Assembly: GCA_964612215.1 (NCBI GenBank)
Contig: CAZTEW010000002.1
Coordinates: 1-63,937 of the forward strand
From: an uncultured Gammaproteobacteria bacterium
Lineage (GTDB): Bacteria; Patescibacteriota; Microgenomatia; CAZTEW01
Length of the DNA: 63,937 nucleotides
Reading direction: 5' to 3'
Below, one piece after another: positions 2,557-63,937 of the stretch (the first letter of the stretch is position 1; every line of letters begins with the position of its first letter). The notes below the pieces were generated by a model. That model had not been told where the DNA came from. It saw only the letters and a program-made list of their open reading frames with translations, and searched no databases. The position numbers were made by a program, and so were the translations under genes.

Positions 2557-3546
2557 TTATTGACTTAAGTAGGGAGCAAAAAAACCGACAATAAAAATAA
2601 TGCCATAGACAAAATGAGTTAGAAAGATAGCCGGCCCGACCATCAGGGTCATATTAAGATCTTTTTCCCGCCAATAAACTACCAGGCTGGTCCAAACCAG
2701 CCCCAAAACATAAACACCAACCGCTGTCAGATAAAAAGGCCGCAAACAGCTAAAAAACATCGCTAAAATTGGCGCCACGAGAACGCCTAAAGCAAACAGG
2801 CTCGGCGCCAAATAGCCCAGACGTAATGAGGTTTGCGGTAAAATTCTGGCAAAGTGGCCCCGATGCAAAGCGTAACGGCTGATTTGCTCCAAGTGAGGGC
2901 CGAAAACTTCCCGACGATGATGGTAGACTAAAACTTTCGGGTCATAAATAATTCTCTTTTTCAGTTTTTGGGTGAGATAAAGACAAAGCTTCGTATCTTC
3001 ACCGGACCAGAAATGAGTATTAAAACCACCGGCCTGGAAAAAATATTTTCTTTTAATCAAAAGATTGGCCGTAGGAAAATCATCTACCTGCCGCTGCGGT
3101 CTAATCGCATAACGGTAAGTACCGGCGCCTTCGCTGCCAAAAGCCAAAGACCAAACATAACCGGCTACTTTTTGGCGAAAGTTATCTTGAGGCGGCGTGA
3201 TCATTGGTCCGCAGACGGCAACAATTTCCTTGCCTTCCTGGAAAATTTTCACCGCTTCCCTCAGCCAATTTTTGCTCGGATAAGAATCGTCATCAATAAA
3301 AGCGAGAATTTCACCCTGGGCTTTTTTGGCACCCAGATCGCGCTTATCTGCTGGTCCGGTTTGCGGCCAAGTGGCAATAATTTTCGCTCGCTGCAGTTTC
3401 TCTTTGGTTTTTTTGTCCGGCAGAATAATAATCTCAAAATTCTGATAGCTCTGTTTCAAAAGGGCAGGAATAGTTTCCTGACGCAGATAGTCATTAACCT
3501 CTTTCACCGGAATAATAATCGACACCAACGGCCCTTGTTTTTTCAC
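2557..3546 (-). CDS. GT2-family glycosyltransferase with C-terminal TM segments
   Basis: 329 aa. VSIIIPVKEVNDYL start, DDDSYP (DxD) motif, hydrophobic C-terminal third. GTG start. Confidence 0.8.
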   Translation of the reverse strand: MKKQGPLVSIIIPVKEVNDYLRQETIPALLKQSYQNFEIIILPDKKTKEKLQRAKIIATWPQTGPADKRDLGAKKAQGEILAFIDDDSYPSKNWLREAVKIFQEGKEIVAVCGPMITPPQDNFRQKVAGYVWSLAFGSEGAGTYRYAIRPQRQVDDFPTANLLIKRKYFFQAGGFNTHFWSGEDTKLCLYLTQKLKKRIIYDPKVLVYHHRREVFGPHLEQISRYALHRGHFARILPQTSLRLGYLAPSLFALGVLVAPILAMFFSCLRPFYLTAVGVYVLGLVWTSLVVYWREKDLNMTLMVGPAIFLTHFVYGIIFIVGFFAPYLSQ

Positions 3547-4616
3547 TAAGCTACCCAGTACCCTCTAGTAAAAAGAATGACGCAAACCATTAAAAGTAAA
3601 AAGCAAAAAGTAAAAAGCAAAAAGTGAATCTTCTTATTTTTCAGCAAGGCTAAATAAAGAAAGCAGGGAAAACAAGCTAAAACATAGCGCGGCAAAGAAG
3701 AGAAGGTTCCGGTTAGAGTCGGAATTAGATAAGCCAAGACGGCAAAAATCAGATAAGAATGTCTCAGGCCTTGACGGTAAGCCAGGATCAAAATTGCTAG
3801 AAAGCCCGAGGCAATTAATGCTTCCAAAACCACCACAAAATAGGTCAACGTCCATTTTTGAACAGTAACCAGCATTTTCAGATAGCGCCAAAAAACCTGG
3901 TACAAAAGAACGATTTTGCCACCACTTCTCTCGGCACCAAAAAACGGCTGAACATGGATAAAATAAAACGGGTCTTCTGCAGTCTGTTTTAAATACCACA
4001 TGTAAGCTAAAAGACCCAGCGGAATCAAAAGTAAAGCAGCGAAGCTTTTGCGCTTGGCTTCCTGCCGCTCGTAAAATAGAGCCGGCAAAAGGAAAATGCC
4101 TGTTAATCGCGTGGCGCTGGCCAGGCCGCCTAAAATCCCGGCTAGCCACCAGCGCTTCTTTCTGGCCGCGTAAAAAGACCCTAAAACCAAAGCCAAAAAA
4201 AGCGATTCAGTATAAACGCTGGCAAAATAAAAAGAGGTGGGAAAAATTAGTAAGTAAAAAATACTTCGCCAAGCTGTCTTTTCGCTAAAGTCAAGTTTGA
4301 CCAATAAATAAAGTAAAACTAAAGAAGCAAAAAACGCCAGATGAGAAATAAATAAACCAGAGAAAACATAATTCCGAGTGAAAAAAGTCAGCCAGCGAAT
4401 CAAAAGAGGATAAAAAGGAAAAAAAGCCTGCTCGTAGTGGAAATAGCCGTGCTCAGCAATGCTGAGGTAATGAACGCCGTCAAAGTTTGACCAGGAATTT
4501 GGGCCGAAAAAATCCGGCCGCTTCACCAGCAACCGTTCGGCTATCATGACCAGCAGCGACAACCCTGTTCGCCAAAAAACAAAAAGAATGAAAATTTTTC
4601 TAAACGACTTTTTCAT
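3546..4616 (-). CDS. PIG-V-like (GT76-type) membrane mannosyltransferase, GT-C
   Basis: 356 aa, polytopic. Motif SNFDGVHYLSIAEHGY...AFFPFYPLL resembles the WDGxxYxxIAxxGY signature of PIG-V-like proteins. Confidence 0.6.
   Translation of the reverse strand: MKKSFRKIFILFVFWRTGLSLLVMIAERLLVKRPDFFGPNSWSNFDGVHYLSIAEHGYFHYEQAFFPFYPLLIRWLTFFTRNYVFSGLFISHLAFFASLVLLYLLVKLDFSEKTAWRSIFYLLIFPTSFYFASVYTESLFLALVLGSFYAARKKRWWLAGILGGLASATRLTGIFLLPALFYERQEAKRKSFAALLLIPLGLLAYMWYLKQTAEDPFYFIHVQPFFGAERSGGKIVLLYQVFWRYLKMLVTVQKWTLTYFVVVLEALIASGFLAILILAYRQGLRHSYLIFAVLAYLIPTLTGTFSSLPRYVLACFPCFLYLALLKNKKIHFLLFTFCFLLLMVCVILFTRGYWVA
3595..3622. repeat. Period-7 tandem repeat (AGTAAAA/AGCAAAA) x4 inside a CDS
   Basis: agtaaaa agcaaaa agtaaaa agcaaaa. 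Encodes the TM segment HFLLFTFCFLLLM. Confidence 0.85.
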
Positions 4617-5604
4617 AGACTTTAATGGTTTCCTCGGCTGTTTTTTGCCAAGTGAATTTTTTCGCCTGATTAATGCCTTTGGCTGATAATTTTTTCCTGA
4701 GCTGGGTGTCTTTCATTAATTTCTCAATTGCTCCCGCCAGCTGGCGGGGATCAACCATCATCGCCGCCTGACCACAAATCTCTGGCAAGCTCGCTACCGC
4801 CGACGCCACCACTGGTGTACCGCAAGCCATCGCCTCTAAAACTGGCAAACCAAAGCCCTCATAAAAAGACGGCTGAACATAAATCGTTGCTAAGTTATAA
4901 ATCTCCACTAATTCTTGGCTGCTCACCCAGCCTAAGATCTTCACTTTTTCTTTTAAACCAAGCCTTTCGATTAATCGAAGAATCACCTTCGCTTCAGGTA
5001 CCTTGGTTTTTTTCAAGGCCCGGCTGACGAAAACTAAATTGGTTTTTGTTTTGGCAACCGCCCGCAACAAACCATCGACATTTTTATTCCAATTCACGTC
5101 GCCGACGTAGAGAACAAAACGCTCGGGGAGGTTATGTTTTTCTTTAATTGGTAATTTTTTGAATTCTTTTGCGGGCGCCAGATAAACAACGTGGATTTTC
5201 TTTGCCGGAACATGAAGATATGTAATAATATCTTCTTTAGAACTTTCTGAATCAGTAATAATTGCGGCGGTGTTGCGCAGAGAGAGTTCTTGAAGTTGAA
5301 GCTTTACTTCACCCTTAATCCCCCGGGGAAAATGCTGGGGAAAAACCAAAGGAATCACGTCATGAATCGTGACTACTGCCGGCTTTGGTTTTTTAAAAGG
5401 CAAAGTCGGAAAAAAAAGATCAAAATAAGGATAGTGAATCAGGTCAGCGTCAACTGGCAAAGGCCCTTGTTTAATTACCTGAAAAGAAAAGTCTTTTTTT
5501 TTGATTCGCTGCAGTCCGGCTAACAACTGCTCGACATAGACACCCATGCCCCGGCCGCTGTGGGCTGAACTGAATTTTCTCAAGTCAAAGACAACCTTCA
5601 TCAC
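4600..5604 (-). CDS. GT4-family (GT-B, group 1) glycosyltransferase
   Basis: 334 aa. Classical EGFGLPVLEAMACGTPVVAS motif. Confidence 0.85.
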   Translation of the reverse strand: MMKVVFDLRKFSSAHSGRGMGVYVEQLLAGLQRIKKKDFSFQVIKQGPLPVDADLIHYPYFDLFFPTLPFKKPKPAVVTIHDVIPLVFPQHFPRGIKGEVKLQLQELSLRNTAAIITDSESSKEDIITYLHVPAKKIHVVYLAPAKEFKKLPIKEKHNLPERFVLYVGDVNWNKNVDGLLRAVAKTKTNLVFVSRALKKTKVPEAKVILRLIERLGLKEKVKILGWVSSQELVEIYNLATIYVQPSFYEGFGLPVLEAMACGTPVVASAVASLPEICGQAAMMVDPRQLAGAIEKLMKDTQLRKKLSAKGINQAKKFTWQKTAEETIKVYEKVV

Positions 5605-7211
5605 TTGTTTTTAAATAGTAGCAGAACCAACAGCAAAAAACTAATTAATGACAGGCCGTCGCTAAATAAGCGCAGCGGCGTTTCGGTAAAGTTCACCCTG
5701 ATCTTACCTTCTCCTTGAACCGCAGCAATACTAAAAGCGCCGTCTGGTTCGATTTCAAGCAGCTGCTTCTGACCATTCCAGCCAGAGGCTGGTCCGCCTT
5801 TGGTGGAAACCAAAACTTGCCAGCCAGGATAATAATTGATATTAAACCGCAGGCGGTTATTTTCTTGAAACTCAGTTTTTGGTTCTGCTGGTTGATCATG
5901 GTTAGCCCAAATCGTCTGAAAACTGTTGCCTAAAGTCGCTGTCCCCTGAGTCCAGTCCGGATTATTTAAATAAAAACCATTATCTCGAGCCGGATAAATA
6001 ACCGGCCGGCTGTAACGCCAATTACAGAGTAAGACGGCTGCCAACAAAGCCAAGGTCAACCAACGCTTCTTCAGTTTCCCAACCAACCATCCGGCCAGAA
6101 AGCTGGTGATCAGCATCATCAGTGACAACAGCCGCCAGGGATATTGAAGATAGGCCAACCAGGGGAAAAAACGCCAGAGCGGCAAAGAAATTTCCAGCAT
6201 TAAAAAAACTAGAAAAATAAACCAAGTCAAGAAAAAGACCGGCTTACTGGAGAGAATTTTTTGCCGCCAGATGACTACCAGGCTCGTCAGCACCACCAAC
6301 CAATGAACCAAACCGACCTGAAATGACATCCCGTCCATAATGCCGCTGACGGAAAAACCATTCCCCCAGGAAGGAAAGACCAGTTGGAAAAAGGCCGGAA
6401 AGTGGTCGCTATAGTTAATCAGCTCTAGCCCGCGGACGAATCTTTTTTCGACCAAGGCCGGCAGCCAAAAATAGGCGCTTAACCCCAAACCAAGAATTAA
6501 AGACACTCCGGACAGCCACTCCTCGGACGGTGGCAGGCTGAATCCGCCAGCTGGCGGAGAAAGCCATGACTCCTCCGAGGTGGGGCGGCAAAAAACTAAA
6601 TAGCTCACTAAAAATACACTGAAAATCATAGCGAGAATATTGTGAGAAAGAATGAGTAAAGCAAAAAATAAGCCCGCTAGTGCTAACCGGCGCTTCTCCC
6701 AAGCCCAAAGAATCGCTGCTAACCAAACCAAAGCCCAGGCTTCGCCGACCGAACCACGAATGTAAGCATCAACAAAATGATAGGGCGCGTAAAGATAGAA
6801 AACAGCGCCAACTAAGGCTGGCCAGGAACCGAAAAGTTCTTTTAACCAAAGATAAAAAAACAGGGTTGACAAAATTAAGGTTAAAGCCAGGCTGAACTTG
6901 AAAGAATCGGCCAGACTGGCACCCAAAAGCAGAAAAATTTCCGCTCCGTAGTTCGGCAACGGATAGAAAAAATTAAAAAGCGGCGCGCCAAAACCATGAT
7001 CTAAATCCGGCGCCCAGCGGGAAAAGGGTCGGCCGCTGCGAAAATTCTTGTCAAACTGCCAAAAACGGATTAGGTGATACTCGCCATCGTGAGTCGGTAT
7101 AAAACCGGCCCGCCATAAGGGCCAGCTCGCCAGAACCACCAATAGCCCCAGAATTAACCATGGCCAGTATTTTTTCATTGTAAAGCAATAATGCCTAAAT
7201 AATGAATCCAA
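5601..7211 (-). CDS. Family A polytopic membrane protein, putative GT-C glycosyltransferase (PTPS-related/COG5617-like by recollection)
   Basis: 536 aa. THDGEYHLIRF, YFWLPAL and YYPGWQVLV motifs, plus a C-terminal TM anchor. The likely true start is ATG at 7178, which forms an ATGA overlap with the upstream stop. Confidence 0.7.
   Translation of the reverse strand: MDSLFRHYCFTMKKYWPWLILGLLVVLASWPLWRAGFIPTHDGEYHLIRFWQFDKNFRSGRPFSRWAPDLDHGFGAPLFNFFYPLPNYGAEIFLLLGASLADSFKFSLALTLILSTLFFYLWLKELFGSWPALVGAVFYLYAPYHFVDAYIRGSVGEAWALVWLAAILWAWEKRRLALAGLFFALLILSHNILAMIFSVFLVSYLVFCRPTSEESWLSPPAGGFSLPPSEEWLSGVSLILGLGLSAYFWLPALVEKRFVRGLELINYSDHFPAFFQLVFPSWGNGFSVSGIMDGMSFQVGLVHWLVVLTSLVVIWRQKILSSKPVFFLTWFIFLVFLMLEISLPLWRFFPWLAYLQYPWRLLSLMMLITSFLAGWLVGKLKKRWLTLALLAAVLLCNWRYSRPVIYPARDNGFYLNNPDWTQGTATLGNSFQTIWANHDQPAEPKTEFQENNRLRFNINYYPGWQVLVSTKGGPASGWNGQKQLLEIEPDGAFSIAAVQGEGKIRVNFTETPLRLFSDGLSLISFLLLVLLLFKNK
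5782..5806. repeat. Type-3 palindromic micro-insertion (KGGPASGW cassette)
   Basis: CCAGAGGCTGGTCCGCCTTTGGTGG. Encodes STKGGPASGW directly after the YYPGWQVLV motif. Confidence 0.8.
6519..6583. repeat. Type-1 palindromic element (65-nt variant) in frame
   Basis: CTCCTCGGAcGGTGG (6519-6533) ... TCCGCCAGCTGGCGGA (6543-6558) ... CTCCTCCGAGGTGG (6570-6583). Translated as PTSEESWLSPPAGGFSLPPSEEW. Confidence 0.75.
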
Positions 7212-8365
7212 ATGGCAAAAACCGTTCCTAAAAAGAAAAGAAGATTGATCCTGCCTTTAACGCCGAAAATCGAAAGCAGCAACAGCGGCACCATAAAGTC
7301 CAAACTATAGCGATAACCAAATTGCAGCCAGCCGCTACTGTAAATCAGAAGAATCGGGCAAACCACTGCCAGCAAGGACAACCAAAGTGAGCGACGGTAA
7401 ATGTCCCGAGGCGCGGCTAAGAAAATCGCTAAAAGCGGTGGCGTCAAAAAGAAAATCGAGCTGCCGTCTAGGTTGAAGCTCAGCTTCACGCCGTCCTGCC
7501 AGCTTAAAGCCGGTATCTCCAAAAGCATAATCCAGAGATTTTTCAACAGATAGGCCAGAGAATAAATGCCGTGTTGATCAATCCAGGACTGAAAATGAGG
7601 ATGATAAATCACGTGGCGATAGCCGTTTTCCAGCGGATTATCAAATCGCAGCCAATTATAAAGAAACATCAGCGAGGCGAAAAACAAGACCGGCCAAACC
7701 ATGAGGCCTAAACAGCGTTTTCTTTTCTCAGCAGATTCAGTTAAAACCAAAGAAAATGTAATTAACAGCAGAAAAATCATTGGTCCTCGACCCAGAAAAG
7801 CTAGACTAATTAATAATGAAGAAAAGAAATAATCGCGAAGCGAGCGCTTTTTTTTGAAGATTAAATAAATACCCAGAGCCGTTGGGAAAAAAGAGACTAC
7901 CTGAGCCGTGTGCCAAACGCCGGCATTGGTCGCCAGGTAAAAATGAGTCGTCCCAAAAGCAAAAAGCGCTGTGGTCAATAAAATGCCCCATTCGGTAAGC
8001 TGAGACAGGAAGTCTTGCTGGAGCCGTTTTAAAAGCAGATAAATAATCACCACATTCAGGCTGCCAAAAAAAACATTAAGATATAAAAGGGGCAGGTAGC
8101 GATGCATTAATACCTGATAAGGCATTAAAATCAGAGCCGACAAGACACCCCAATAAGGATACCAGCGGCCTTGATAAAAAGCGAGGTCATAATTGGTTGC
8201 TGGCTCGGGAATATCCAACCTGCCTTGAAGCAGGGATTGGGCTAAGGGGTTGAAGTGATCTAAGTCCAGGGGAACAATAAAGCTGCCTCTCGTGCCAACG
8301 TAAAAATAAATCAGAGAAACCACTAAAAAGATAAGCAATTTTTTCATAGCCGGAAAACTAACCAA
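7175..8365 (-). CDS. Polytopic membrane protein, putative GT-C glycosyltransferase
   Basis: 396 aa with about 10 hydrophobic segments. Loop motif YDLAFYQGRWYPYWGVL. An alternative ATG at 8347 gives an ATGA overlap with the upstream stop. Confidence 0.55.
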   Translation of the reverse strand: MVSFPAMKKLLIFLVVSLIYFYVGTRGSFIVPLDLDHFNPLAQSLLQGRLDIPEPATNYDLAFYQGRWYPYWGVLSALILMPYQVLMHRYLPLLYLNVFFGSLNVVIIYLLLKRLQQDFLSQLTEWGILLTTALFAFGTTHFYLATNAGVWHTAQVVSFFPTALGIYLIFKKKRSLRDYFFSSLLISLAFLGRGPMIFLLLITFSLVLTESAEKRKRCLGLMVWPVLFFASLMFLYNWLRFDNPLENGYRHVIYHPHFQSWIDQHGIYSLAYLLKNLWIMLLEIPALSWQDGVKLSFNLDGSSIFFLTPPLLAIFLAAPRDIYRRSLWLSLLAVVCPILLIYSSGWLQFGYRYSLDFMVPLLLLSIFGVKGRINLLFFLGTVFAIWIHYLGIIALQ

Positions 8366-9894
8366 TCAGCGTTCTGATAAGCCAATTCTAAATTTTCCTG
8401 AAAAAAGTCAGTTTTCAGTCTTAAGGGCAACAGCAAGTAATCAATCTCTTGGCTTTTCATCAGCGCCAGCGTCTCTTGATCACCAGCGCTAAAAAAACGT
8501 TTGGCCAGATTTTTTCTATCAGTAAAATTATAGCCCATCACCTCAAGATAATAATTAGCGCCGCAATAATTAAAGCGGCCAGCCAGGGTCACTGGATCTA
8601 AAATCTCGGCCGGCGCCAGAAAAACAGACTGACGGTCTGTTTCTATTTTAATCCAAGCCATCAACTCCCTAGTTGACGCTTCCGGAAAAGAGAGCTGAAA
8701 ATCATTCTTGACGGCCAGGAAATTCAAGCCGCCGGAAAAAGTCAATAGAAAAAAGGTGGTAAAAAATAAAATTTTTCCCACGTTTTCTTGTTTGATTAAC
8801 CAAACAAGAAAAAAGGCAGTATAAAAATTCGCCCCAAGAAAAAATAAATTAAACAACGAGTGATTATGGTCAATCCGAAAACCTAATTGAAACAAATTGC
8901 CAATGATAAACAACGGTAAAAAGCTAAAAAAAATCTGCCGTTGTTTTTTGCCGGCCAGAATCACGCCGGCCGGAATGGTGAAAAGAGCCGCGCCGAAATT
9001 CAGCCACCAGAATTTAAACCACTCCCCTAGTCCATCTACTAAAAAGCCCGGCCGCCAAAAAGGATGAGTTAGGTTCTGGTTTAAAATCTGAAGGCCGTGA
9101 GGTAAAAAAATCAAGCCAGCTGGCAGAAAAACTAGCCAAATTTGCCGCCAACGCCGGAAAAAGATAAAAAGAAAAAACAGGGTTAGGCTACTACTGAAAA
9201 AAATTAAAGTATGGATTCGCGAAGAAAGCCCTAAAATTAAACCCAGACCAACCAACAGCCGCGACGCCAGCGGCTGATCATTAAACAATCGCTTAATAAT
9301 GAAATTAAGAATCGCCAGACTGATGGCCAGGCCGGCAAGCAAATGCCGCTGGTTCAACCAAACATTAGGGGTGAAAAAAATCGAAATCAACGACCCGTCA
9401 AAGGGTCCTTTGTGGAGATAATCTGGCAAAAACCAGAAGTCCCGCCAAGTCGGCCCTTGTTGGAAAAAATCAACAAAACTTAAACTGCTCGAAAAAAGAA
9501 AAAAAGCCACTGATAATATCCCCAACCAAGGATTAAGGCCGAAAATAGTCTGGGAAAGTTTATAAATCAAAAATAAAATCGCGGTGAAAGCGATAACGCT
9601 TAAACCATTAAAAGCATAGTCCAACCGCCAGCCTAATCTCTCTAAGCCGCCGACCACCAGATCAAAATAATAATGATAAGGCAGGGGTTTGCCCGGAAAA
9701 AACGGCGACTCGACTGGAAAATTGTTGCCCCAAGAAAAAGAACGGATTAAAGACAGGTGTAGGCCAAAATCGCCTACCTGATGCCGGGCGATCCGGAACT
9801 GGCCGATCTCCGGCAAATAGCCAAACGACTTATTCATCAGCCAGCAGGAAAAAAGAAAGAAGAAAACCAGCAGCAGAATTTCAAACTTTTTCAC
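8344..9894 (-). CDS. Polytopic membrane protein, family unassigned (possible GT-C)
   Basis: 516 aa, multi-TM, with a soluble C-terminal domain. GTG start. Family not recognised by eye. Confidence 0.5.
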   Translation of the reverse strand: MKKFEILLLVFFFLFSCWLMNKSFGYLPEIGQFRIARHQVGDFGLHLSLIRSFSWGNNFPVESPFFPGKPLPYHYYFDLVVGGLERLGWRLDYAFNGLSVIAFTAILFLIYKLSQTIFGLNPWLGILSVAFFLFSSSLSFVDFFQQGPTWRDFWFLPDYLHKGPFDGSLISIFFTPNVWLNQRHLLAGLAISLAILNFIIKRLFNDQPLASRLLVGLGLILGLSSRIHTLIFFSSSLTLFFLFIFFRRWRQIWLVFLPAGLIFLPHGLQILNQNLTHPFWRPGFLVDGLGEWFKFWWLNFGAALFTIPAGVILAGKKQRQIFFSFLPLFIIGNLFQLGFRIDHNHSLFNLFFLGANFYTAFFLVWLIKQENVGKILFFTTFFLLTFSGGLNFLAVKNDFQLSFPEASTRELMAWIKIETDRQSVFLAPAEILDPVTLAGRFNYCGANYYLEVMGYNFTDRKNLAKRFFSAGDQETLALMKSQEIDYLLLPLRLKTDFFQENLELAYQNADWLVFRL

Positions 9895-21045: not shown

Positions 21046-21053
21046 CTCTCCTA

Positions 21054-48013: not shown

Positions 48014-48036
48014 ATAAAGAATAGTATACCCAAGTT

Positions 48037-52227: not shown

Positions 52228-52254
52228 TATTAACTATTATATAATAAAGTTAGT

Positions 52255-56996: not shown

Positions 56997-57679
56997 AAGC
57001 GAAAACTTTCTTTGATTGACCGCCAGATTACTTGCGGATCAGCGCCGGTTTGCCGACCCGCTTGACGCGGATAATGAGTCACTGGAATTTCTATAATTTT
57101 AAAACCAGATTTTTTCGCTTTCACCAAGAGCTCAGTTGCAGTCATGCCGCTGCTGGTTTGTAAAGTGCCAATTTGGTCAATCACTTCTTTTTTGATCAAC
57201 TTAAAACCACAATCAACGTCATGCATCCAAAGACCGAAAAAAATCAGATTCCAAAATTTCAGCATCTGGCCGATTAAAATCCGCTGCCAGGGATCGCGGC
57301 GCGGCGAGCGATAGCCGATAATTAAATCAGCTTCATCGCGTCGATCTAGAAAATTATCAATCTCCTGGAAGTTAAATTGACCGTCAGAATCAGTGTAGGC
57401 AATCCAGGGATATTGGCAATGAGTAAAGCCAGATTTCAGGGCAGCGCCATAGCCGCGGTTCGGCGTGTGAGCAATGAGCTTAATTCTTGGGTTTCTCTTG
57501 ATCAGCTTTTTGACAATCACCGCTGTTTGATCAAGACTGCCGTCATCAACCACAATGACTTCATAACTCCCAGCGGTTTTTTTCAGCTTCTCGACGCTAG
57601 CGTTCACTGTTTTCTTAATATTTTTCTCTTCGTTATACGCCGGAAAAAACACCGAAAGTGCTGCAATCTTCATCACCAA
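56972..57679 (-). CDS. GT2 polyprenyl-phosphate glycosyltransferase (DPM1/GtrB-like)
   Basis: LSVFFPAYNEEKNI, VIVVDDGSLDQT and YTDSDGQF motifs. The ORF-track start at 57679 is TTG. The ATG at 57673 (MKIAALS) is more likely. Confidence 0.75.
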   Translation of the reverse strand: MVMKIAALSVFFPAYNEEKNIKKTVNASVEKLKKTAGSYEVIVVDDGSLDQTAVIVKKLIKRNPRIKLIAHTPNRGYGAALKSGFTHCQYPWIAYTDSDGQFNFQEIDNFLDRRDEADLIIGYRSPRRDPWQRILIGQMLKFWNLIFFGLWMHDVDCGFKLIKKEVIDQIGTLQTSSGMTATELLVKAKKSGFKIIEIPVTHYPRQAGRQTGADPQVIWRSIKESFRLWQSLSNS

Positions 57680-57722
57680 AAGTATAACATAGAAGGCTAA
57701 AAAGCATTATCTAAGCGTTTGA

Positions 57723-57751
57723 TTGACAGGAATCAGCTTTTGTGTTATCTT
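57723..57751 (+). promoter_or_regulatory. Sigma70-like promoter: TTGACA-N17-TATCTT with a TGn extension
   Basis: TTGACA at 57723-57728, a 17-nt spacer ending in TGT, and TATCTT at 57746-57751. Points into the 345-nt non-coding region. Confidence 0.45.
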
Positions 57752-57757
57752 ATGAGA

Positions 57758-57994: not shown

Positions 57995-58032
57995 TTGACA
58001 AATTATCACAGGTGTCATAATTTGTCAATTTT
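57995..58032 (+). terminator. Perfect 12-bp inverted repeat plus T-tract (intrinsic terminator on the plus strand; could also be an operator or promoter palindrome)
   Basis: TTGACAAATTAT-cacaggtgtc-ATAATTTGTCAA followed by TTTT. It overlaps the dedA stop codon (58025-58027). On either strand it also reads TTGACA-N17-TAATTT. Confidence 0.5.
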
Positions 58033-58693
58033 GGAGTTGATTTTTATTTTTATTTTGCCAGTGGCGGTGACGTTTAAGCTTGTGGCGGAAGTAGCCGATG
58101 CCGGCAGCAAGAAAAAGGCCAACCAAAACCGCGTCGAATTTATGAAAATAGCCACCCAGAGAATCCCAATTTTCTCCTAGTTTCACTCCCAGCCAGGCTA
58201 GAGCCGCTGACCAGAGAAACGAACCGACGGTCGTATAAAAAGCAAACTTAGGGAAGTTCATCCGGCTAATTCCGGCCGGCAAGGAAATAAAAGTCCGGAC
58301 TACGGGTAATAATCGCGAGGTAAAGGCAATCACTTCGCCATGTTTTTGGAACCAGTGAATCGCTTCGTCCAGTTCATACTCAAAAACCAAAACAAATTTT
58401 CCCCAGCGCCGGATTAACTGGCGGACAATCTCCTCGCCAAAACGCGCTCCTAACCAATAAGCCAAGGCTGACCCTAAAAGGCAGCCAATGGCGCCGGCCA
58501 AAGCCACCAGCCAGAAATTAAACGCACCCAGAGCCACTAAAAACCCGGAGAAAGGCATGATAATTTCCGAAGGCAAAGGAATGCAGGCGGATTCGATGGC
58601 CATCGCCAAAACAATGCCGAAATAGCCTAAACTGGAAATCAGGTTTTTGACAAAAACAGCCAGAATAATCAGGATTTGAGAAACGAAGTTCAT
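58025..58693 (-). CDS. dedA: DedA-family membrane protein
   Basis: 222 aa. LGYFGIVLAMAIESACIPLPSEIIMPFSGFL is typical of the DedA/SNARE-associated family. Confidence 0.8.
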   Translation of the reverse strand: MNFVSQILIILAVFVKNLISSLGYFGIVLAMAIESACIPLPSEIIMPFSGFLVALGAFNFWLVALAGAIGCLLGSALAYWLGARFGEEIVRQLIRRWGKFVLVFEYELDEAIHWFQKHGEVIAFTSRLLPVVRTFISLPAGISRMNFPKFAFYTTVGSFLWSAALAWLGVKLGENWDSLGGYFHKFDAVLVGLFLAAGIGYFRHKLKRHRHWQNKNKNQLQN

Positions 58694-59859
58694 TATCGAG
58701 TTTTCCAGATAAAGCGGTTGTAGATGGTGTAGTTCCAGGCGATGGTCGCTACTAAACCTAAAACAAAGAAGGCATGAATGAAAATGCTTTCCGGAGTCAC
58801 TAAAATTTCACCTAAACGGACAATCCCTCCCTGTAATAACCAAACAGCAATATTTGATGTCAGCCAAAACTGAAGAAATTTAAATAAAAACTTAGCCGGC
58901 TGGTTGATTCTTTTGTCCCGGAAAGTCCAGAGATTATTTAAAAGATAGTTAGAAATAATCGCCAGCTGGCCACCGAGAATCGTGGCCAAGGCTGGAGTAA
59001 CTGCTTTGATACCGAAAGCAAGTAAATAATAAACGACTGTCTGAATCACTAAACCAGTGCCGCCGACAACCGCAAATTTAATAAAGCGGGCTGAGCGGTC
59101 TAAGCGGATTAAAATCGCCAGCTTCATGTATTCAAAAACGTCCCGCAAGTAACTTTTAAGATATTTTTTACCAATCTTCGCCTCGCCCCTGGTTCGGAAT
59201 TTGAAAACTACCGGTACTTCGCTAAATTTATCCGTCACCTTTGAAAGAGCGTAAAGAATATAGGCCTGAAAGCCAAAGCCGCGAACCTTAATTTTATTCA
59301 TCAGCTGGTCTAAAGGGACCTGATCCAGAACGCCTCTGACCCGAATCGCTTTAAAGTTACCGTTATGATCTTTAACTTCCTTAATGCCGGCCACGTAAGT
59401 AGCAAAGAGGTCGTTGGCCACCCAATGATTAAGTTTCCGGAAAAGGCTCCAGCCTTCGGTGCCAGCCTGACCCACGTGCCGGGAAGCGACGACGACATCA
59501 TCACCGGCTTCTATTTTGGCCAGCAAATCAACAATGTGCTTGGGATCAAAAGAAAAATCGCAATCATTAGGAATAATCACCTCAGCTTGCATCTTCTCCA
59601 TCGCGTACTGGTAGCCGCGAATCAAAGCATGACCTAGGCCTTTTTTAAGACCAGTGATGAGTTCCACCGAAGAATCTTTTTTCATATATTCCTTGACCAC
59701 CTCACCGGTGCCGTCAGGCGAATCGTCATCAACCACCAGCGTTGCGAATTGATACTGGGGATTATCCCGAGCAATCTTAGTCAGCGCGGTCAGCATCAAG
59801 CCGATGTTTTCTTTTTCGTTATAAGTCGGGATAATATTAACGATTTTCATAATAATCAA
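58693..59859 (-). CDS. GT2 polyprenyl-phosphate glycosyltransferase fused to a GtrA-like membrane domain
   Basis: 388 aa. N-terminal motifs IIPTYNEKENI and LVVDDDSPDGT. The C-terminal four-TM domain FIKFAVVGGTGLVIQTVVYYLL...NNLWTFR is typical of GtrA. Confidence 0.8.
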   Translation of the reverse strand: MIIMKIVNIIPTYNEKENIGLMLTALTKIARDNPQYQFATLVVDDDSPDGTGEVVKEYMKKDSSVELITGLKKGLGHALIRGYQYAMEKMQAEVIIPNDCDFSFDPKHIVDLLAKIEAGDDVVVASRHVGQAGTEGWSLFRKLNHWVANDLFATYVAGIKEVKDHNGNFKAIRVRGVLDQVPLDQLMNKIKVRGFGFQAYILYALSKVTDKFSEVPVVFKFRTRGEAKIGKKYLKSYLRDVFEYMKLAILIRLDRSARFIKFAVVGGTGLVIQTVVYYLLAFGIKAVTPALATILGGQLAIISNYLLNNLWTFRDKRINQPAKFLFKFLQFWLTSNIAVWLLQGGIVRLGEILVTPESIFIHAFFVLGLVATIAWNYTIYNRFIWKTR

Positions 59860-60775
59860 TGGTTTTCCGCAACCCTTCTTCTAATCCGATCATCGGTTGC
59901 CATTTAAGGATTTTTTTAGCCTGGCTAATGTCCGGCTGACGCTTAACCGGATCATCAGTCGGTAAGCTTTCGAACTTAATTACCGACCGGCTTTGAGTCA
60001 TGGCTTTAATCAGTTTTGCCAAGTCAATTATCCGAATTTCTTCAGGCGACCCTAAATTAAAAATTTCTCCATTAGTCTGCTCATTGTTCATCGCTTTCAG
60101 TAGACCATCAACCATGTCGCTGACAAAACAAAAAGAGCGGGTTTGTTGGCCCTGGCCAAAAACAGTGATTGGTTCGTCCCTGAGAGCTTGATTAATGAAA
60201 GTCGAAACCACCCGGCCGTCATCAGAGCGCATTTTCGGACCATAAGTGTTAAAAATGCGGCTAATCCTGAGATCGAGATTAAACTGGCGCTGATAATTAA
60301 CACCAAGGGCTTCGGCAAATCTCTTCGCCTCATCATAACAAGCTCGCGGCCCAACCGGATTCGCATTTCCCCAGTAAGTTTCTTTTTGCGGATGTTCTTG
60401 GGGATCGCCATAAACCTCAGAAGTAGAAGCCAGTAAAAAGCGGGCTTGATTTTGCTTAGCCAACTCCAATAAATGATAAGTACCGAGCGAGTTGGTCATT
60501 AAGGTTTCAATCGGATACTTCTGGTAATCAACCGGCGAAGCCGGCGAAGCTAGGTGATAGATAAAATCAATTGAAAATTTAAAATTTAAAATTGAAAATT
60601 TAGTAATATCTTCTTCTATTAAAGAAAATTTTGGGTTTTTCAGAAAAGAGGCTATATTTTCACGACGGCCGGTAATAAAATTATCCAAACAAATTACCTG
60701 ATGGCCTACCTGCAGAAGCTTTTCGACTAAATGGGCGCCAATAAAGCCCGCGCCGCCGGCAATCAAACTTTTCAT
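59837..60775 (-). CDS. uxs: UDP-glucuronate decarboxylase (UDP-xylose synthase), extended SDR
   Basis: 312 aa. GGAGFIGAHL, IYHLASPASP, STSEVYGDPQEHPQKETYWGNANPVGPRACYDEAKRFAE and RIFNTYGP closely match canonical UXS motifs. Confidence 0.85.
   Translation of the reverse strand: MKSLIAGGAGFIGAHLVEKLLQVGHQVICLDNFITGRRENIASFLKNPKFSLIEEDITKFSILNFKFSIDFIYHLASPASPVDYQKYPIETLMTNSLGTYHLLELAKQNQARFLLASTSEVYGDPQEHPQKETYWGNANPVGPRACYDEAKRFAEALGVNYQRQFNLDLRISRIFNTYGPKMRSDDGRVVSTFINQALRDEPITVFGQGQQTRSFCFVSDMVDGLLKAMNNEQTNGEIFNLGSPEEIRIIDLAKLIKAMTQSRSVIKFESLPTDDPVKRQPDISQAKKILKWQPMIGLEEGLRKTIDYYENR
60571..60601. repeat. Period-7 repeat (TTGAAAA TTTAAAA TTTAAAA TTGAAAA) inside the uxs CDS
   Basis: Encodes KFSILNFKFSI. 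This loop is about 4 residues longer than the equivalent HDVVEPLYIEVDQIY segment of canonical UXS as I recall it. Confidence 0.8.
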
Positions 60776-61740
60776 CGTCTTTTTTCTCGTTCCAAATCAG
60801 CTTCAACCATCATTGTCACTAGGTCTTTAAAGCTGACTTCTGGCCGCCAACCCAGGATTTTTCTCGCTCGGGAAGCATCAGCTAAAAGCTGGTCAACTTC
60901 TGATGGCCGTAAAAATTCTTCATCACTTTCAACGTACTGGCGCCAGTTTTTAAGACCGGCGACTTTGAAGGCCTCTTCCACAAATTCTTTTACCGAGTGG
61001 TTTTCAGCCATACCGACGACAAAATCCGATGGTTCTTTTTGCTGCAGCATTAAGCGCATCGCCCGCACATAGTCGCCGGCAAACCCCCAATCCCGCCGGG
61101 CTTCTAAATTGCCTAAAACTAGCTTTTTTTGCCGGCCGAGTTTAATCCGGGCGACCCCTAGGCTAATTTTTCTAGTAACAAACTCGAGCCCGCGACGAGG
61201 ACTCTCGTGGTTAAACAGAATGCCGGAAACCGCAAAAAGCCGATAGGCTTCGCGATAATTAATCGTTATCCAATGGCCATAAACTTTAGCCACTCCATAG
61301 GGACTCCGGGGATGAAACCGGGTTTTTTCGTTCTGCGGCGTCTCTTCTGCCTGGCCGTACATCTCGCTGCTCGAAGCCTGATAAAATTTCGCTTTCGGAC
61401 AGACATGACGCATCGCTTCCAGCATCCGCGTCACTCCCAAAGCCGTCGCCTCACCAGTATAAACTGGCTGCTGAAAAGAAGAGCCGACAAAAGACTGAGC
61501 AGCTAAGTTGTAAATCTCATCCGGCTTAACTTTCTTCATCGCTCGAATCAGAGAATACTGGTCTAGAAGATCAGCGTCAACCAGCTCAATTTTATCCAGC
61601 AGGTGGCTAATTCTCTCACAGCCGTTAGTGCTCAGGCGGCGCTGCAAACCAAAAATCTGGTAATTCAAATCCAGCAGATGCTCGGCCAGATAGGAACCGT
61701 CTTGGCCGGTAATGCCGGTAATCAAGGCCTTCTTTTTCAT
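60772..61740 (-). CDS. gmd: GDP-mannose 4,6-dehydratase
   Basis: 322 aa. ALITGITGQDGSYLAEHLL, GLQRRLSTNGCERISHL, ASSSEMYG and RSPYGVAKVYGHW motifs. Confidence 0.8.
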   Translation of the reverse strand: MKKKALITGITGQDGSYLAEHLLDLNYQIFGLQRRLSTNGCERISHLLDKIELVDADLLDQYSLIRAMKKVKPDEIYNLAAQSFVGSSFQQPVYTGEATALGVTRMLEAMRHVCPKAKFYQASSSEMYGQAEETPQNEKTRFHPRSPYGVAKVYGHWITINYREAYRLFAVSGILFNHESPRRGLEFVTRKISLGVARIKLGRQKKLVLGNLEARRDWGFAGDYVRAMRLMLQQKEPSDFVVGMAENHSVKEFVEEAFKVAGLKNWRQYVESDEEFLRPSEVDQLLADASRARKILGWRPEVSFKDLVTMMVEADLEREKRR

Positions 61741-62693
61741 TTTCTCGATAACATTTCTAGGTCGTAATTAGTCATTTTTTCAATCATTTTTTCAAAAGAA
61801 ACGCTGGGTTGCCAGCCTAAGATTCTTTTCGCCCGGGAAGCGTCGCCGAGTCTTTTTTCCGGTCCTTCCCGGCGGAAAAATTCCCGCTTCACTACCACGG
61901 ACTGCTGCCAATCTAGGCCGACGGCTGCAAAAGCAATTTTACAAATATCTTCCACTGAATGCAACTTGCCGCTGGCAATCACATAGTCCCCTGGACCCTT
62001 TTGCTGCAGCATCAGCCAGGCCGCCAGGACATAATCCGGCGCATAACCCCAGTCGCGTTGAGCCGTCAAATTGCCCAATTCCAGCTTCTTGGCTAAACCC
62101 AGTTTAATTTTGGCCGCACCTTGGGTGATTTTCCGGGTGACAAACTCTGGCGGCCGGCGCTCTGACTCGTGATTGTAAAAAATGGCGGAACAGGCATAAA
62201 GTCCGTATTTCTCTCGAAAAGACTGCACCAGAAAATGAGCAAAGGCCTTAGAGGCGGCGTAGGGATTCAGCGGCATAATCGGCGTTTTTTCGTTCTGCGG
62301 ACTTTTTGCCGTCCGGCCGAAAATTTCGGCTGATGAAGCTTGGAAGAATCTAGTTTTGGGTAATTTTTCCTGAATGATTTCTAAAATCCGTCCGACTCCT
62401 AAAGCATTGACATCAGCCACTAAGCTGGGCTTTTGCCAGGAAAGAGGCATAAAACTAATGGCCGCCAGATTATAAAGCTCATCGGGCTTTACCGCGGTCA
62501 TCACTCGTTCCAGAGAATTTTTGTCCTGTAGGTCGCCTTGATAAATCTTAATCTTCTCCTGAACCGGCAGAATATTAGCCAGGCTTTCTTTTTTCAAAAC
62601 TAAGCCGGCCACCTGGTAGCCTTTTTCCAAAAGCAGTTCTGTTAAATAAGAACCATCCTGACCGGCAATGCCGGTAATCAAAGCCTTCTTCAT
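61737..62693 (-). CDS. GDP-mannose 4,6-dehydratase-like SDR (divergent tandem paralogue)
   Basis: 318 aa. ALITGIAGQDGSYLTELLL, ASSAEIFG and NPYAASKAFAHF motifs. Lacks the RRxSxFNTxRIxHL segment of canonical GMD. Confidence 0.65.
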   Translation of the reverse strand: MKKALITGIAGQDGSYLTELLLEKGYQVAGLVLKKESLANILPVQEKIKIYQGDLQDKNSLERVMTAVKPDELYNLAAISFMPLSWQKPSLVADVNALGVGRILEIIQEKLPKTRFFQASSAEIFGRTAKSPQNEKTPIMPLNPYAASKAFAHFLVQSFREKYGLYACSAIFYNHESERRPPEFVTRKITQGAAKIKLGLAKKLELGNLTAQRDWGYAPDYVLAAWLMLQQKGPGDYVIASGKLHSVEDICKIAFAAVGLDWQQSVVVKREFFRREGPEKRLGDASRAKRILGWQPSVSFEKMIEKMTNYDLEMLSRK

Positions 62694-63937
62694 CTCCGGC
62701 CCACTCCTTCGTAGATAAAACCAAGTTTCTTTAATTTTTCCGGGTTAAAAAAGTTGCGGCCGTCAACGACAATCGGTTGACGCATCAAGCCTTTCACTTG
62801 CTGCCAGTCCAAATCCTGAAATTCACTCCACTCGGTCACCAAAACTAAAACATCAGCGCCTTTGACTGCCTGATAAGCATCCGCGGCATAGCTGATTTTT
62901 TTCAGAATTTTTTTCGCATTCTTCATCGCCGCCGGATCATAAGCGCTGATTTTTGCGCCCAAGCGCTGCAGTTTTTTAATTAACAACACGCTCCGCGCTT
63001 CCCGTAAATCATCAGTCTCGGGTTTAAAAGCCAGGCCTAGAACCGCCACCACCTTACCTTTTAAATCACCGCCGAGCCGGCGGCTGATTTTAGCGCTAAA
63101 ATAGTCAATCTGGGTGCGGTTGATTTTGTCCACGGCTCGCAAAAAACCGAAATCAACCTTTTGCTGTTTGGCAAAAGCAGTCAAAGCCCAGGTATCTTTT
63201 GGGAAACATGAACCGCCGTAGCCGAGGCCGGCTTGCAGGAAATCTCTGCCGATGCGCGGATCCAGACCCAAACCTGCCGCCACTTTGATAATGTCAGCGC
63301 CGGTTTGATCGCAAAGCCGGGCAATCAGATTAATAAAAGAAATCTTGGTGGATAAAAAGGCATTGGCGGCATACTTAATTGTCTGGCTGCTTTTGGCATC
63401 GCAAATCACTTGCGGCGCCTTGATAGGCTGATGCAGTTTTTGCAATAGTTTCACCGCCCGGTAATTGTCGGCGCCAATGACAATTCGGCTCGGATGCAAC
63501 GCGTCATGGACTGCCGAACCCTCGCGCAGGAATTCCGGACAGGCCGCCAAATCAAACGGCATTTTAGTGACCTGTTCCATAATTTCTTTTACCTGGTCGT
63601 TAGTGCCCGGCGGCACCGTGCTTTTGATGACCACTAAAGCATAGCCAGCTAGATTCCGGGCGATTGATTCTGCCGCCTGAAAAACATAGTCTAAATTATA
63701 ATCACCGTTACTTTTAGCCGGCGTGCCGACGCAGATGAAAACGATTTCCGCTCCGGCCAGGGCTTGCTGATATGAAGTGGTGAATTTTAATCTGCCGGCA
63801 TCAATATTTTTCTGAAGCAATTCTTTTAAACCAGGCTCGTAAAAAGGGACAGTTTTTGCTTTTAAACTTTTAATTTTCAATTTGTCTACGTCTAAGCCAT
63901 AAACCTGATTCCCTAAATCGGCAAAAACCGCCGCCGT
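62690..63937 (-). CDS. ugd: UDP-glucose 6-dehydrogenase, 5'-truncated by the window edge
   Basis: VPFYEPGL, FICVGTP, GGSCFPKD and LGLAFKPETDD motifs. The frame stays open upstream of the ORF-track TTG to nt 63937 (..TAAVFADLGNQVYGLDVDKLKIKSL), so the Rossmann N-terminus lies outside the window. Confidence 0.85.
   Translation of the reverse strand, partial: TAAVFADLGNQVYGLDVDKLKIKSLKAKTVPFYEPGLKELLQKNIDAGRLKFTTSYQQALAGAEIVFICVGTPAKSNGDYNLDYVFQAAESIARNLAGYALVVIKSTVPPGTNDQVKEIMEQVTKMPFDLAACPEFLREGSAVHDALHPSRIVIGADNYRAVKLLQKLHQPIKAPQVICDAKSSQTIKYAANAFLSTKISFINLIARLCDQTGADIIKVAAGLGLDPRIGRDFLQAGLGYGGSCFPKDTWALTAFAKQQKVDFGFLRAVDKINRTQIDYFSAKISRRLGGDLKGKVVAVLGLAFKPETDDLREARSVLLIKKLQRLGAKISAYDPAAMKNAKKILKKISYAADAYQAVKGADVLVLVTEWSEFQDLDWQQVKGLMRQPIVVDGRNFFNPEKLKKLGFIYEGVGRR

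Follow-up and report, generated by a model that had tools for sequence, protein, structure and literature searches.

In the three- and multi-component glycosylation systems GtrA-GtrB-GtrC, CsbB-GtcA-YfhO, ArnC-ArnEF-ArnT and GacI/J-GacK-GacL, a GT2 glycosyltransferase of the GT-A fold makes a polyprenyl-phosphate sugar, a flippase of the GtrA or Wzx type moves it across the membrane, and a polytopic glycosyltransferase of the GT-C type uses it at the outer face. The GacI/GacK variant likewise has a soluble GT2 and a Wzx-type flippase (PMC8035078). A genome holds one to three such modules, each with a single GT-C enzyme, and the sugars are attached as side chains to a polymer whose synthesis takes place elsewhere. 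Here we describe a 61-kb glycosylation locus of an uncultured Microgenomatia bacterium, positions 2557-63937 of contig CAZTEW010000002.1. The window analysed was this whole contig (63,937 bp), and its 49 long open reading frames (ORFs) were numbered g1-g49. The locus has the same kinds of parts and shares the YfhO and PMT_2 families with the systems above, but it does not follow the pattern of one synthase, one flippase and one GT-C: it contains 25 GT-C proteins in about ten sequence families, only five candidate synthases and two flippase candidates in one co-directional array. Unlike those systems, the array is conserved gene for gene across a class-level lineage with roughly 1-Mb genomes.

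Two larger pathways were also compared. In the mycobacterial and corynebacterial lipomannan-lipoarabinomannan-arabinogalactan pathway (PimA/B, Ppm1, PimE, MptA/B/C, EmbA-C, AftA-D), many outer-face GT-C enzymes act in sequence with polyprenyl-phosphate donors after cytoplasmic GT4 steps, as is proposed here. The products of g10 and g37 resemble MptA/MptB, g4 matches GT87, and the structural model of g8 matches AftA and AftD. However, the window matches are all far below the equivalog cut-offs (g10 against TIGR03459, 1.9e-11 and 43.5 bits with a cut-off of 439; g37 against TIGR03459, 6e-14, and against MptB, 30.1 bits with a cut-off of 40), no phosphatidylinositol, inositol-lipid or arabinose (DprE/UbiA-type) genes were seen in the window, and the YfhO and PTPS_related families dominate it. 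The mycobacterial lipomannan and arabinan genes are scattered around the genome and not gathered in one locus. The lumenal enzymes of the eukaryotic endoplasmic reticulum (ER; ALG3/9/12/6/8/10, STT3, PMT, TMTC, DPY19, PIG-B/M/V/Z), which are fed by Dol-P-Man/Dol-P-Glc-type donors, are comparable in GT-C number and diversity. The g7 model resembles ALG3/ALG9/ALG12, the g8 model resembles DPY19/STT3, g1 has the TMTC architecture, and the g4 orthologue resembles PIG-V. In contrast to the ER set, the genes are here bacterial, clustered in a tiny genome and apparently co-transcribed, no oligosaccharyltransferase scored above thresholds, and the likeness is at the level of fold only (8-14% identity).

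Classical Wzx/Wzy O-antigen and capsule loci share with the window sugar-nucleotide genes, cytoplasmic GT2/GT4 enzymes, a Wzx, a one-strand layout and cassette variation, but the window lacks an initiating phosphoglycosyltransferase, Wzy, Wzz and a ligase, and GT-C genes make up two thirds of its DNA. An initial annotation, made from the sequence alone, had judged the locus unlike a classical O-antigen or capsule locus, and the absence of these hallmark genes within the window agrees with it. The same annotation knew of no described counterpart; in the full texts that we searched, a search that was not exhaustive, no description of a GT-C or YfhO expansion in the Candidate Phyla Radiation (CPR), Patescibacteria or Microgenomates was found. 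Every part of the locus belongs to a known superfamily; its scale, diversity and conservation are the surprising aspects.

We favour, with modest confidence, the reading that the locus directs conserved envelope-glycan biosynthesis, in which the GT-C set carries out the fixed steps of one or a few pathways for defined glycans, together with a variable cassette. In distant Microgenomates the paralogues are matched one to one by orthologues whose order is kept, which argues that the GT-C enzymes have fixed, non-redundant tasks. The 47 genes in 2557-63937 were assigned from the ORF listing, Pfam and a hydropathy count, and are given below together with g1 and g2, which lie just outside.

g1, 108..1754, plus strand, PMT_2-type GT-C with at least eight transmembrane segments and a C-terminal TPR region (TPR by Pfam); outside 2557-63937
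g2, 1807..2484, minus strand, IS200-like Y1 transposase marking the left border (PF01797 E 1.7e-10; NF047646 RAYT E 4.5e-13, 49 bits, below the cut-off of 80)
g3, 2557..3546, minus strand, GT2, MftF/EpsD-like, with C-terminal transmembrane segments
g4, 3546..4616, minus strand, GT-C, GT87/PIG-V-like, 356 aa (GT87 27.3 bits, above cut-off; the L010 orthologue matches Mannosyl_trans2)
g5, 4600..5604, minus strand, GT4, cytoplasmic, with only a generic MshA/GlgA-type resemblance
g6, 5601..7178, minus strand, GT-C family A, PTPS_related-like (BLASTP to g35 7e-113; weak PMT_2; hhalign of family A)
g7, 7175..8347, minus strand, GT-C without a Pfam family, 390 aa (AlphaFold2 model, Foldseek, hhalign)
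g8, 8344..9894, minus strand, GT-C with Dpy19/STT3/AftA-like fold (AlphaFold2 model, Foldseek)
g9, 9881..10996, minus strand, probable GT-C, seven transmembrane segments, the weakest support in the set (PMT_2 E 3.3e-4, below cut-off; hhalign 89%)
g10, 10975..12138, minus strand, GT-C family D, GT87/MptA-like (weak GT87; TIGR03459; paralogue of g37; orthologue matches MptA_B_family)
g11, 12125..12625, minus strand, DUF5667 membrane-anchored protein adjoining the methyltransferase, an arrangement that is conserved
g12, 12622..13332, minus strand, S-adenosylmethionine-dependent methyltransferase
g13, 13316..14164, minus strand, GT2, grouped with g29 and g32
g14, 14386..16011, minus strand, GT-C family A, PTPS_related (PF10131 32.5 bits)
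g15, 16011..17660, minus strand, GT-C family B, PMT_2 with DE motif
g16, 17657..19339, minus strand, GT-C family B, PMT/PMT_2
g17, 19336..21045, minus strand, GT-C family B
g18, 21072..22784, plus strand, GT-C family B
g19, 22774..25194, minus strand, GT-C family C, YfhO (PF09586 96.9 bits)
g20, 25191..26690, minus strand, GT-C family E (BLASTP to g42 2e-25; PMT_2 E 0.018)
g21, 26657..27394, minus strand, GT2, polyprenyl-phosphate-sugar synthase-like (AglJ 3.6e-24, PpgS 2.3e-19, full length)
g22, 27384..29735, minus strand, GT-C, YfhO
g23, 29883..30590, minus strand, GT2, polyprenyl-phosphate-sugar synthase-like (AglJ 9.3e-36, ArnC 8.4e-20)
g24, 30593..32257, minus strand, GT-C family A (BLASTP to g35 9e-104)
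g25, 32226..33086, minus strand, GT2, MftF/EpsD-like
g26, 33088..35274, minus strand, GT-C, YfhO
g27, 35271..36341, minus strand, GT4
g28, 36322..38631, minus strand, GT-C, YfhO
g29, 38591..39409, minus strand, GT2
g30, 39399..40316, minus strand, GT2, rhamnosyltransferase/MftF-like
g31, 40313..40945, minus strand, conserved 210-aa protein with one N-terminal transmembrane segment (L011 orthologue at the same position)
g32, 40903..41835, minus strand, GT2
g33, 41832..43286, minus strand, Wzx/MOP flippase (Polysacc_synt_3 3.8e-56, 190.9 bits; MOP flippase 4.9e-40)
g34, 43279..44904, minus strand, GT-C family A, PTPS_related
g35, 44901..46514, minus strand, GT-C family A, PTPS_related
g36, 46511..48319, minus strand, GT-C, PMT_2 singleton (PMT_2 34.3 bits)
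g37, 48037..49185, minus strand, GT-C family D, GT87/MptA/MptB-like (GT87 28.2 bits; TIGR03459; MptB 1.6e-7)
g38, 49182..49940, minus strand, GT2, polyprenyl-phosphate-sugar synthase-like (PgfS 4.8e-18, ArnC 1.8e-17)
g39, 49933..52227, minus strand, GT-C, YfhO
g40, 52255..53865, plus strand, GT-C family B
g41, 53774..55471, minus strand, GT-C family A (BLASTP to g14 1e-73)
g42, 55452..56996, minus strand, GT-C family E, PMT_2 (62.5 bits)
g43, 56972..57679, minus strand, GT2, polyprenyl-phosphate-sugar synthase-like (ArnC 1.2e-18)
g44, 58025..58693, minus strand, DedA family, closest to UptA (VTT_dom 3.4e-24; UptA 1.3e-42, 146 bits, below the cut-off of 250)
g45, 58693..59859, minus strand, GT2 fused to a GtrA/DPMS transmembrane domain (GtrA_DPMS_TM 53.8 bits, cut-off 26.1)
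g46, 59837..60775, minus strand, SDR-type NDP-sugar epimerase/dehydratase, a generic SDR sugar-nucleotide enzyme
g47, 60772..61740, minus strand, GDP-mannose 4,6-dehydratase (GMD; TIGR01472 421.9 bits, above the equivalog cut-off of 415)
g48, 61737..62693, minus strand, GMD paralogue, 50% identical to g47
g49, 62690..63937, minus strand, UDP-glucose 6-dehydrogenase, truncated at the window end

The initial annotation had placed 26 GT-C-type polytopic proteins within 2557-63937. Twenty-five of them were found there, and the 26th is g1, just outside. The other genes agreed with the annotation in Pfam and NCBIfam: 11 GT2-domain proteins (ten GT2 and the GT2-GtrA fusion), two GT4, one Wzx, one DedA, one methyltransferase and four sugar-nucleotide enzymes, besides the DUF5667 protein g11 and the 210-aa g31. 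GT-C genes occupy 67.6% of the bases in 2557-63937. In a crude hydropathy scan, every GT-C candidate had 6-13 hydrophobic segments and a short basic N-terminus ahead of the first transmembrane segment. When the ORFs were compared with hidden Markov models, as the annotation had proposed, 17 of the 25 passed the Pfam gathering scores for GT-C families and none matched a transporter: g19, g22, g26, g28 and g39 (n=5) for YfhO; g15-g18, g36, g40 and g42 for PMT/PMT_2, with g16 matching PMT as well; g14, g34 and g35 for PTPS_related; and g4 and g37 for GT87. YfhO and PTPS_related are members of the Pfam GT-C clan. Sub-threshold PMT_2 or GT87 matches were found for g6, g9 and g10, and no reportable Pfam match for g7, g8, g20, g24 and g41. 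Relaxing the Pfam search to E 10 added no useful match for g7, g24, g31, g41 and the N-terminus of g1, and sequence searches of the g1 N-terminus, g9 and g31 against PDB chains gave no matches.

The at least eight sequence families that had been counted from the sequence were recovered by all-versus-all BLASTP as five multi-member families (6, 5, 5, 2 and 2) and five singletons. Family A is PTPS_related-like (g6, g14, g24, g34, g35, g41), family B is PMT_2 (g15, g16, g17, g18, g40), family C is YfhO (g19, g22, g26, g28, g39), family D is GT87-like (g10, g37) and family E is PMT_2 (g20, g42); the singletons are g4, g7, g8, g9 and g36. BLASTP linked g24 and g41 to family A at 1e-50 to 1e-100, and g20 to g42 at 2e-25. 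Window paralogues were 30-40% identical to each other. In profile comparison with hhalign, family A matched YfhO with 99.65% and PMT_2 with 95.9% probability, the g7 family matched the PMT_2 family B profile with 96.1% (E 3e-9, 346 columns), and g9 with its orthologue matched the PMT_2 family with 89%. The comparison of the g8 family with the PMT_2 family was not significant (3% probability), so the assignment of g8 was taken from its structure and from Dpy19/DUF2298 matches in its homologues.

The structures of g7 and g8 were modelled using AlphaFold2 and compared with the PDB using Foldseek, a check that the annotation had also named; the top matches of both were all GT-C. The g7 model had a predicted local distance difference test (pLDDT) score of 95.5 and its top 13 PDB matches were all GT-C (AglB, ALG12, ArnT, ALG3, ALG9, Pmt4, AftA, EmbB); homologues of g7 are likewise without a Pfam match. 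The g8 model, from a 60-sequence alignment, had a pLDDT of 92.8 and its 21 best PDB matches were all GT-C (DPY19 1e-7, STT3, AftA with a template modelling (TM) score of 0.59, PglB, ArnT, AftD). The fold matches of the two models had a probability of 1.0 and TM scores up to 0.59. Hundreds of g8 homologues with about 50% identity were found across Microgenomates, a few of them with Dpy19 or DUF2298 matches. In the family alignments an acidic motif directly after the first transmembrane segment was invariant: HD(G) in family A, DE(A) in family B, D64 in YfhO, FSYDxFNY in family D, DxGRD in family E, G22-D23 in the g8 family and D68-D69 in the g1 family. In the g7 family, D54 after the first transmembrane segment was nearly invariant. 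An acidic first-loop motif is the catalytic signature of GT-C enzymes (PMC8035078).

The possibility that g1 is a hidden O-antigen ligase or polymerase was rejected: 17 of 38 g1 homologues matched PMT_2, and the g1 profile matched family B with 96.5% in hhalign, the invariant DD of g1 being aligned on the DE motif. A GT-C region followed by TPR, as in g1, is the architecture of TMTC O-mannosyltransferases (PMC7801869). None of the 26 polytopic proteins of the window was found to be a transporter, polymerase or ligase; by predicted activity, all 26 are GT-C enzymes.

Some gene starts and neighbourhoods within this set were also recorded. The public gene call of g8 (497 aa, ATG 9837) lacks the first transmembrane segment: the model of the shorter protein opens with strands and not with a helix, and the consensus of its homologues extends further at the N-terminus. 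GTG 9894 fits that consensus and is probably where g8 begins. For g36, the longest ORF (TTG 48319) runs 283 nt into g37, and ATG 48013 or 47998 is probably the real start. At about 50% identity, g8 is unusually well conserved for a GT-C gene of this locus. The homologues of g7 and those of g8 came repeatedly from contigs of identical length (for example 7518, 6961, 15875, 347585 and 85572 bp), and the two genes are adjacent in contig L010, so that g7-g8 is a gene pair conserved in Microgenomates.

For g19, g7 and g8, the best homologues came from Candidatus Shapirobacteria, Gottesmanbacteria, Levybacteria, Woesebacteria and other Microgenomates/Patescibacteria, which places the organism in the Microgenomates group of the CPR. 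No other contig was listed with the proteins of the window, and an exact-sequence query with one of them had no match on record. The closest named match was 60% identical, the closest named relative is Candidatus Shapirobacteria, and the public homologues are annotated as 'hypothetical protein' or 'YfhO family protein'. Synteny was built from contig look-ups, and a scan of a genome collection with g19 gave two loci. The ENA contigs L001 and L002 had 70-92% protein identity and about 80% DNA identity to the window, and the same organisation was seen in Shapirobacteria GCA_002793635.1, in the JGI contigs L004 and L007 and in contig L008. Gottesmanbacteria MFJV01000001 (1.02 Mb) carries Wzx-GT2-GT2-GT2-YfhO-GT4-YfhO-GT2-methyltransferase-YfhO-PMT, which matches g33 through g25 and g19; the core Wzx-GT2-GT2-GT2-YfhO-GT4-YfhO-GT2 is common to Shapirobacteria, Gottesmanbacteria and metagenome contigs. 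The most telling stretch, 111110-154652 of GCA_040960095.1 (43.5 kb, one contig), follows the window from g31 through g4, with g31, g30, g29, g28, g27, g26, g25, g19, g16, g15, g14, g13, g12, g11, g10/g9, g8, g7, g6, g5 and g4 represented. Each of its proteins is closest to a different window paralogue (35-62% identity, clearly above the other paralogues). This one-to-one colinearity means that the duplications are old, that their order was preserved and that the locus is not a chimera. As judged from these comparisons, the locus is a conserved feature of Microgenomates, already present in public genomes and unremarked, and the block g39-g41 moves as a unit.

Within the otherwise colinear locus, g24 and g23 (about 29778-32257) form a variable cassette: in L001 they are replaced by an unrelated 644-aa protein (L001 3516-5417) with about 13 hydrophobic segments and an RRDD loop, between flanks of about 80% nucleotide identity. 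The g20 orthologue is a single 499-aa gene in L001 (8497-10004) and is split into 182-aa and 314-aa ORFs in the sister contig L002 (5155-6654) of the same population; the split could reflect a frameshift, a pseudogene or a mistake in assembly.

Comparison with NCBIfam sorted the GT2 set into three groups. The full-length best matches of g21, g23, g38 and g43 were AglJ, PpgS, ArnC, PgfS and dolichyl-phosphate hexose transferase, and g45 was grouped with them by BLASTP, by its GtrA/DPMS domain and by a partial PgfS match. The products of g3, g25 and g30 resemble ordinary glycan-extending GT2 enzymes (MftF, EpsD, rhamnosyltransferase), and g13, g29 and g32 form the third group. The two flippase candidates are the GtrA domain of g45 and the Wzx/MOP protein g33. 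UptA, the closest relative of the DedA protein g44, is an undecaprenyl-phosphate recycling transporter (PMC11898649). As had been reported in the initial annotation, no initiating phosphoglycosyltransferase (PF00953 or PF02397) and no Wzy, Wzz or WaaL family was matched in Pfam and NCBIfam by the window ORFs of at least 150 aa; the absence of the initiating transferase holds for the 64 kb of this contig, one end of which is truncated. The small membrane-anchored proteins g31 and g11 have counterparts at matching positions of the distant syntenic locus L011/L010 and could be acceptor-binding or partner subunits. The g31 protein has a Pro-rich linker and a C-terminal domain and is without a match in Pfam, NCBIfam and the PDB.

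Under the favoured reading, the sugar-nucleotide enzymes g49, g47, g48 and the SDR protein g46, whose families are clear, would supply UDP-glucuronate and GDP-4-keto-6-deoxymannose derivatives. Judging by similarity, g21, g23, g38, g43 and g45 would charge polyprenyl phosphate with single sugars on the cytoplasmic side of the membrane, and the GtrA domain and/or Wzx would flip these lipid-linked sugars. Wzx would probably also flip a lipid-linked oligosaccharide primer made by the six other GT2 and the two GT4 enzymes. At the outer face, the 25 GT-C enzymes would each attach one specific sugar through one specific linkage, with a predicted donor, acceptor and order, and the released polyprenyl phosphate would be returned to the inner leaflet by the UptA-like DedA protein g44, as its family suggests. 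The methyltransferase g12 may modify the glycan. The framework for such systems of synthase, flippase, GT-C and recycling is taken from PMC8035078, PMC11127046 and PMC11898649. Candidate products are a lipoglycan, a wall-linked polysaccharide and a glycoprotein glycan. The initial annotation had proposed an extracytoplasmic decoration system that uses polyprenyl-phosphate monosaccharide donors. The parts of such a donor system were found, but both the word decoration and the restriction to monosaccharides are doubtful. 'Decoration system' is probably too modest a label, because an orthologue for each paralogue, in the same order, points to fixed and non-redundant pathway steps. In addition, the presence of Wzx and eight cytoplasmic GT2/GT4 enzymes implies production and flipping of a lipid-linked oligosaccharide as well, so that the system would not be purely one of monosaccharide donors.

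Several points weigh against the assembly-pathway reading. Conserved gene order alone does not prove sequential action on a single glycan. Neither an acceptor nor an initiating phosphoglycosyltransferase was identified in the window, and the contig is incomplete at its right end. The matches of the five synthase-like GT2 proteins (E 1e-12 to 1e-36) are all far below the NCBIfam equivalog cut-offs, and the acceptor of these enzymes may be either polyprenyl phosphate or a glycan; four of the five are without a membrane anchor in the hydropathy scan. The evidence for g9 as a GT-C enzyme is weak throughout, and consensus scans of three intergenic gaps for promoters and terminators stayed at background level.

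Among the explanations considered, the assembly pathway ranks above a set of independent modules, followed by protein O-glycosylation, a classical Wzy locus and an artefact. Independent three-component decoration modules, in which each GT2 synthase serves a few GT-C enzymes and side-chain sugars are placed on different pre-existing polymers (teichoic-acid-like polymers, peptidoglycan-linked polysaccharides or lipids) after the pattern of CsbB/GtcA/YfhO and GtrABC, are rather unlikely yet rank highest among the alternatives; they correspond to the decoration system of the initial annotation. The synthase-like GT2 genes do adjoin GT-C genes (g21 beside g22/g20, g23 beside g24/g22, g38 beside g39/g37, and g43 after g42), YfhO and PMT_2 are known decorating enzymes in Firmicutes (PMC8035078; PMC11898649), and a cassette is swapped between close relatives as in serotype-converting systems. 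However, the paralogues are old at 30-40% identity, orthologue and position are kept across distant Microgenomates, which is unexpected for accessory and interchangeable decorations, the ratio is 25 GT-C to five synthases, and the window showed no genes for a backbone polymer of the teichoic acid or rhamnan type. It is improbable that the locus serves mainly protein O-glycosylation, with the PMT-like, PMT_2 and TMTC-like enzymes acting on secreted or S-layer proteins or pilins and the other GT-C enzymes extending these glycans. Such a role would suit family B, which matches PF02366 (PMT) and carries the DE motif, the TMTC O-mannosyltransferase architecture of g1 (PMC7801869), the best GT2 match AglJ of archaeal S-layer N-glycosylation, and g33, which resembles an 'O-glycosylation flippase' model (8.9e-37); but no STT3/PglB/PglL-type oligosaccharyltransferase scored above any threshold, the established roles of YfhO, GT87/MptA-like and PIG-V-like enzymes lie in the glycosylation of lipids and polymers instead, and the locus is without a candidate acceptor protein gene.

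A classical Wzx/Wzy O-antigen or capsule locus, with its polymerase, ligase and initiator hidden among the polytopic proteins or past the contig end, is very unlikely. Wzx and eight cytoplasmic GT2/GT4 enzymes are present, the contig is cut at the right end, and Wzy and WaaL proteins are notoriously divergent. However, no ORF matched Wzy_C, O-antigen polymerase, Wzz, Bac_transf or Glycos_transf_4, the family-less g7 and g8 fold as GT-C and not as Wzy/WaaL, the g1 family is PMT_2-like, and the related 43.5-kb and 22-kb loci are likewise without Wzy, Wzz, ligase or initiator families. An assembly chimera that joins paralogues from several organisms, which the annotation had named as a concern, was rejected and has next to no probability. 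In principle, the many paralogues and internal repeats of a metagenome contig could mislead an assembler, but the GC content (0.40-0.48) and the negative GC skew are uniform across the window, paralogues 30-40% identical are too divergent for mis-joining, and independent ENA, JGI and NCBI assemblies have the same gene order.

The layout of the locus was largely as first described. Between 2557 and 63937, 98.7% of the bases are coding and 45 of the 47 genes are on the minus strand, in line with the annotated bias to one strand; the two plus-strand genes, g18 and g40, both belong to family B. The twelve 4-nt overlaps by longest-ORF coordinates were exact. Five further ATGA overlaps had been predicted from internal ATGs: those at 7178, 8347 and 12625 were confirmed, no overlap is made at 14131 and 29735, which border intergenic gaps of 221-254 nt and 147 nt, and one at 49185 had been missed. 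Since g49 runs past the window end, the right-hand border of the locus is outside view. The intergenic spaces were too small for additional genes when the gaps of the window were inspected, and tRNA and Rfam scans of the window gave no matches. The starts of g18 and g40 each lie 26-27 nt away from where the neighbouring minus-strand gene begins (21045-21072; 52227-52255), and at their other ends both genes overlap the following minus-strand gene tail to tail, g18 by 11 nt (22774-22784) and g40 by 92 nt (53774-53865), so any long minus-strand transcript would read antisense through both. Inverted repeats flanking g18 and g40 were sought as signs of invertible segments; no convincing ones were found and the idea was rejected. 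The largest non-coding gap (57680-58024, 345 nt), between the DedA gene g44 and the GT2 gene g43, is without a credible ORF. An AT-rich perfect palindrome at 57995-58028, TTGACAAATTAT-N10-ATAATTTGTCAA, overlaps the g44 stop codon and reads TTGACA-N17-TAATTT on both strands.

Two families of GC-rich near-perfect palindromes were observed in frame inside window genes. Type 1, with the core CCTCCGAGGTGGC, occurs in g1 (twice), g6, g15, g16, g17, g32 and g35, with 21 pattern matches against 0.73 expected and all copies in one orientation on the plus strand. Type 2, CCGCCCCCGCAGTGGAGCCACAAATCCACTGCGGGGGCGG, occurs in g18, g40 and g41, with five matches against 0.05 expected. Their positions are as follows.

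Type 1: g1, 146-227 and 1241-1287; g6, 6572; g15, 17276-17312; g16, 18946; g17, 20664-20700; g32, 41502-41546; g35, 45885-45929
Type 2: g18, 21423-21460; g40, 52582-52621; g41, 54336-54379

The palindromes translate as short Pro/Arg/Ser-rich inserts. In family B the insert lies in the same loop in five of five paralogues. Gottesmanbacteria orthologues show just four residues at this site, and the inserts of Shapirobacteria-like contigs differ and carry hairpins of their own. The Y1 transposase gene g2 adjoins the locus and is closest to the repetitive extragenic palindrome (REP)-associated tyrosine transposases (RAYTs; 49 bits, below cut-off). The palindromes look like REP/REPIN-type elements that colonise tolerant coding loops in a genome with almost no intergenic DNA, for which the Rickettsia palindromic elements are an analogy. 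Descriptions of both RAYTs and REPs are available (PMC2817692; PMC3116915).

In conclusion, the locus is intermediate between the simple three-component decoration of bacteria and the pathways with many GT-C enzymes found in mycobacteria and in the eukaryotic ER. For the study of GT-C enzymes it is a resource of about ten divergent families, two of them without a Pfam model yet with high-confidence folds, and its conserved gene order could help in ordering the pathway steps. A bolder version of the assembly pathway is possible, though we hold it with more doubt than belief: Microgenomates genomes of about 1 Mb would devote about 6% to one operon-like array of 25 or more GT-C enzymes, in an ER-lumen-like or mycobacterium-like manner, and their principal envelope polymer would be a large, defined heteroglycan made almost wholly from polyprenyl-phosphate monosaccharides, with swappable cassettes giving strain-specific surfaces. 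If true, no organism would be known to have a larger or more diverse clustered GT-C pathway. The CPR/Patescibacteria are mostly uncultured and their envelope chemistry is essentially unknown, and the locus offers a concrete starting point for its study. The findings suggest an unusually elaborate outer-face sugar coat in these bacteria, and the use of two thirds of 61 kb for outer-face glycosyltransferases points to a complex surface glycan as central to CPR biology, which may matter for host attachment or phage evasion.

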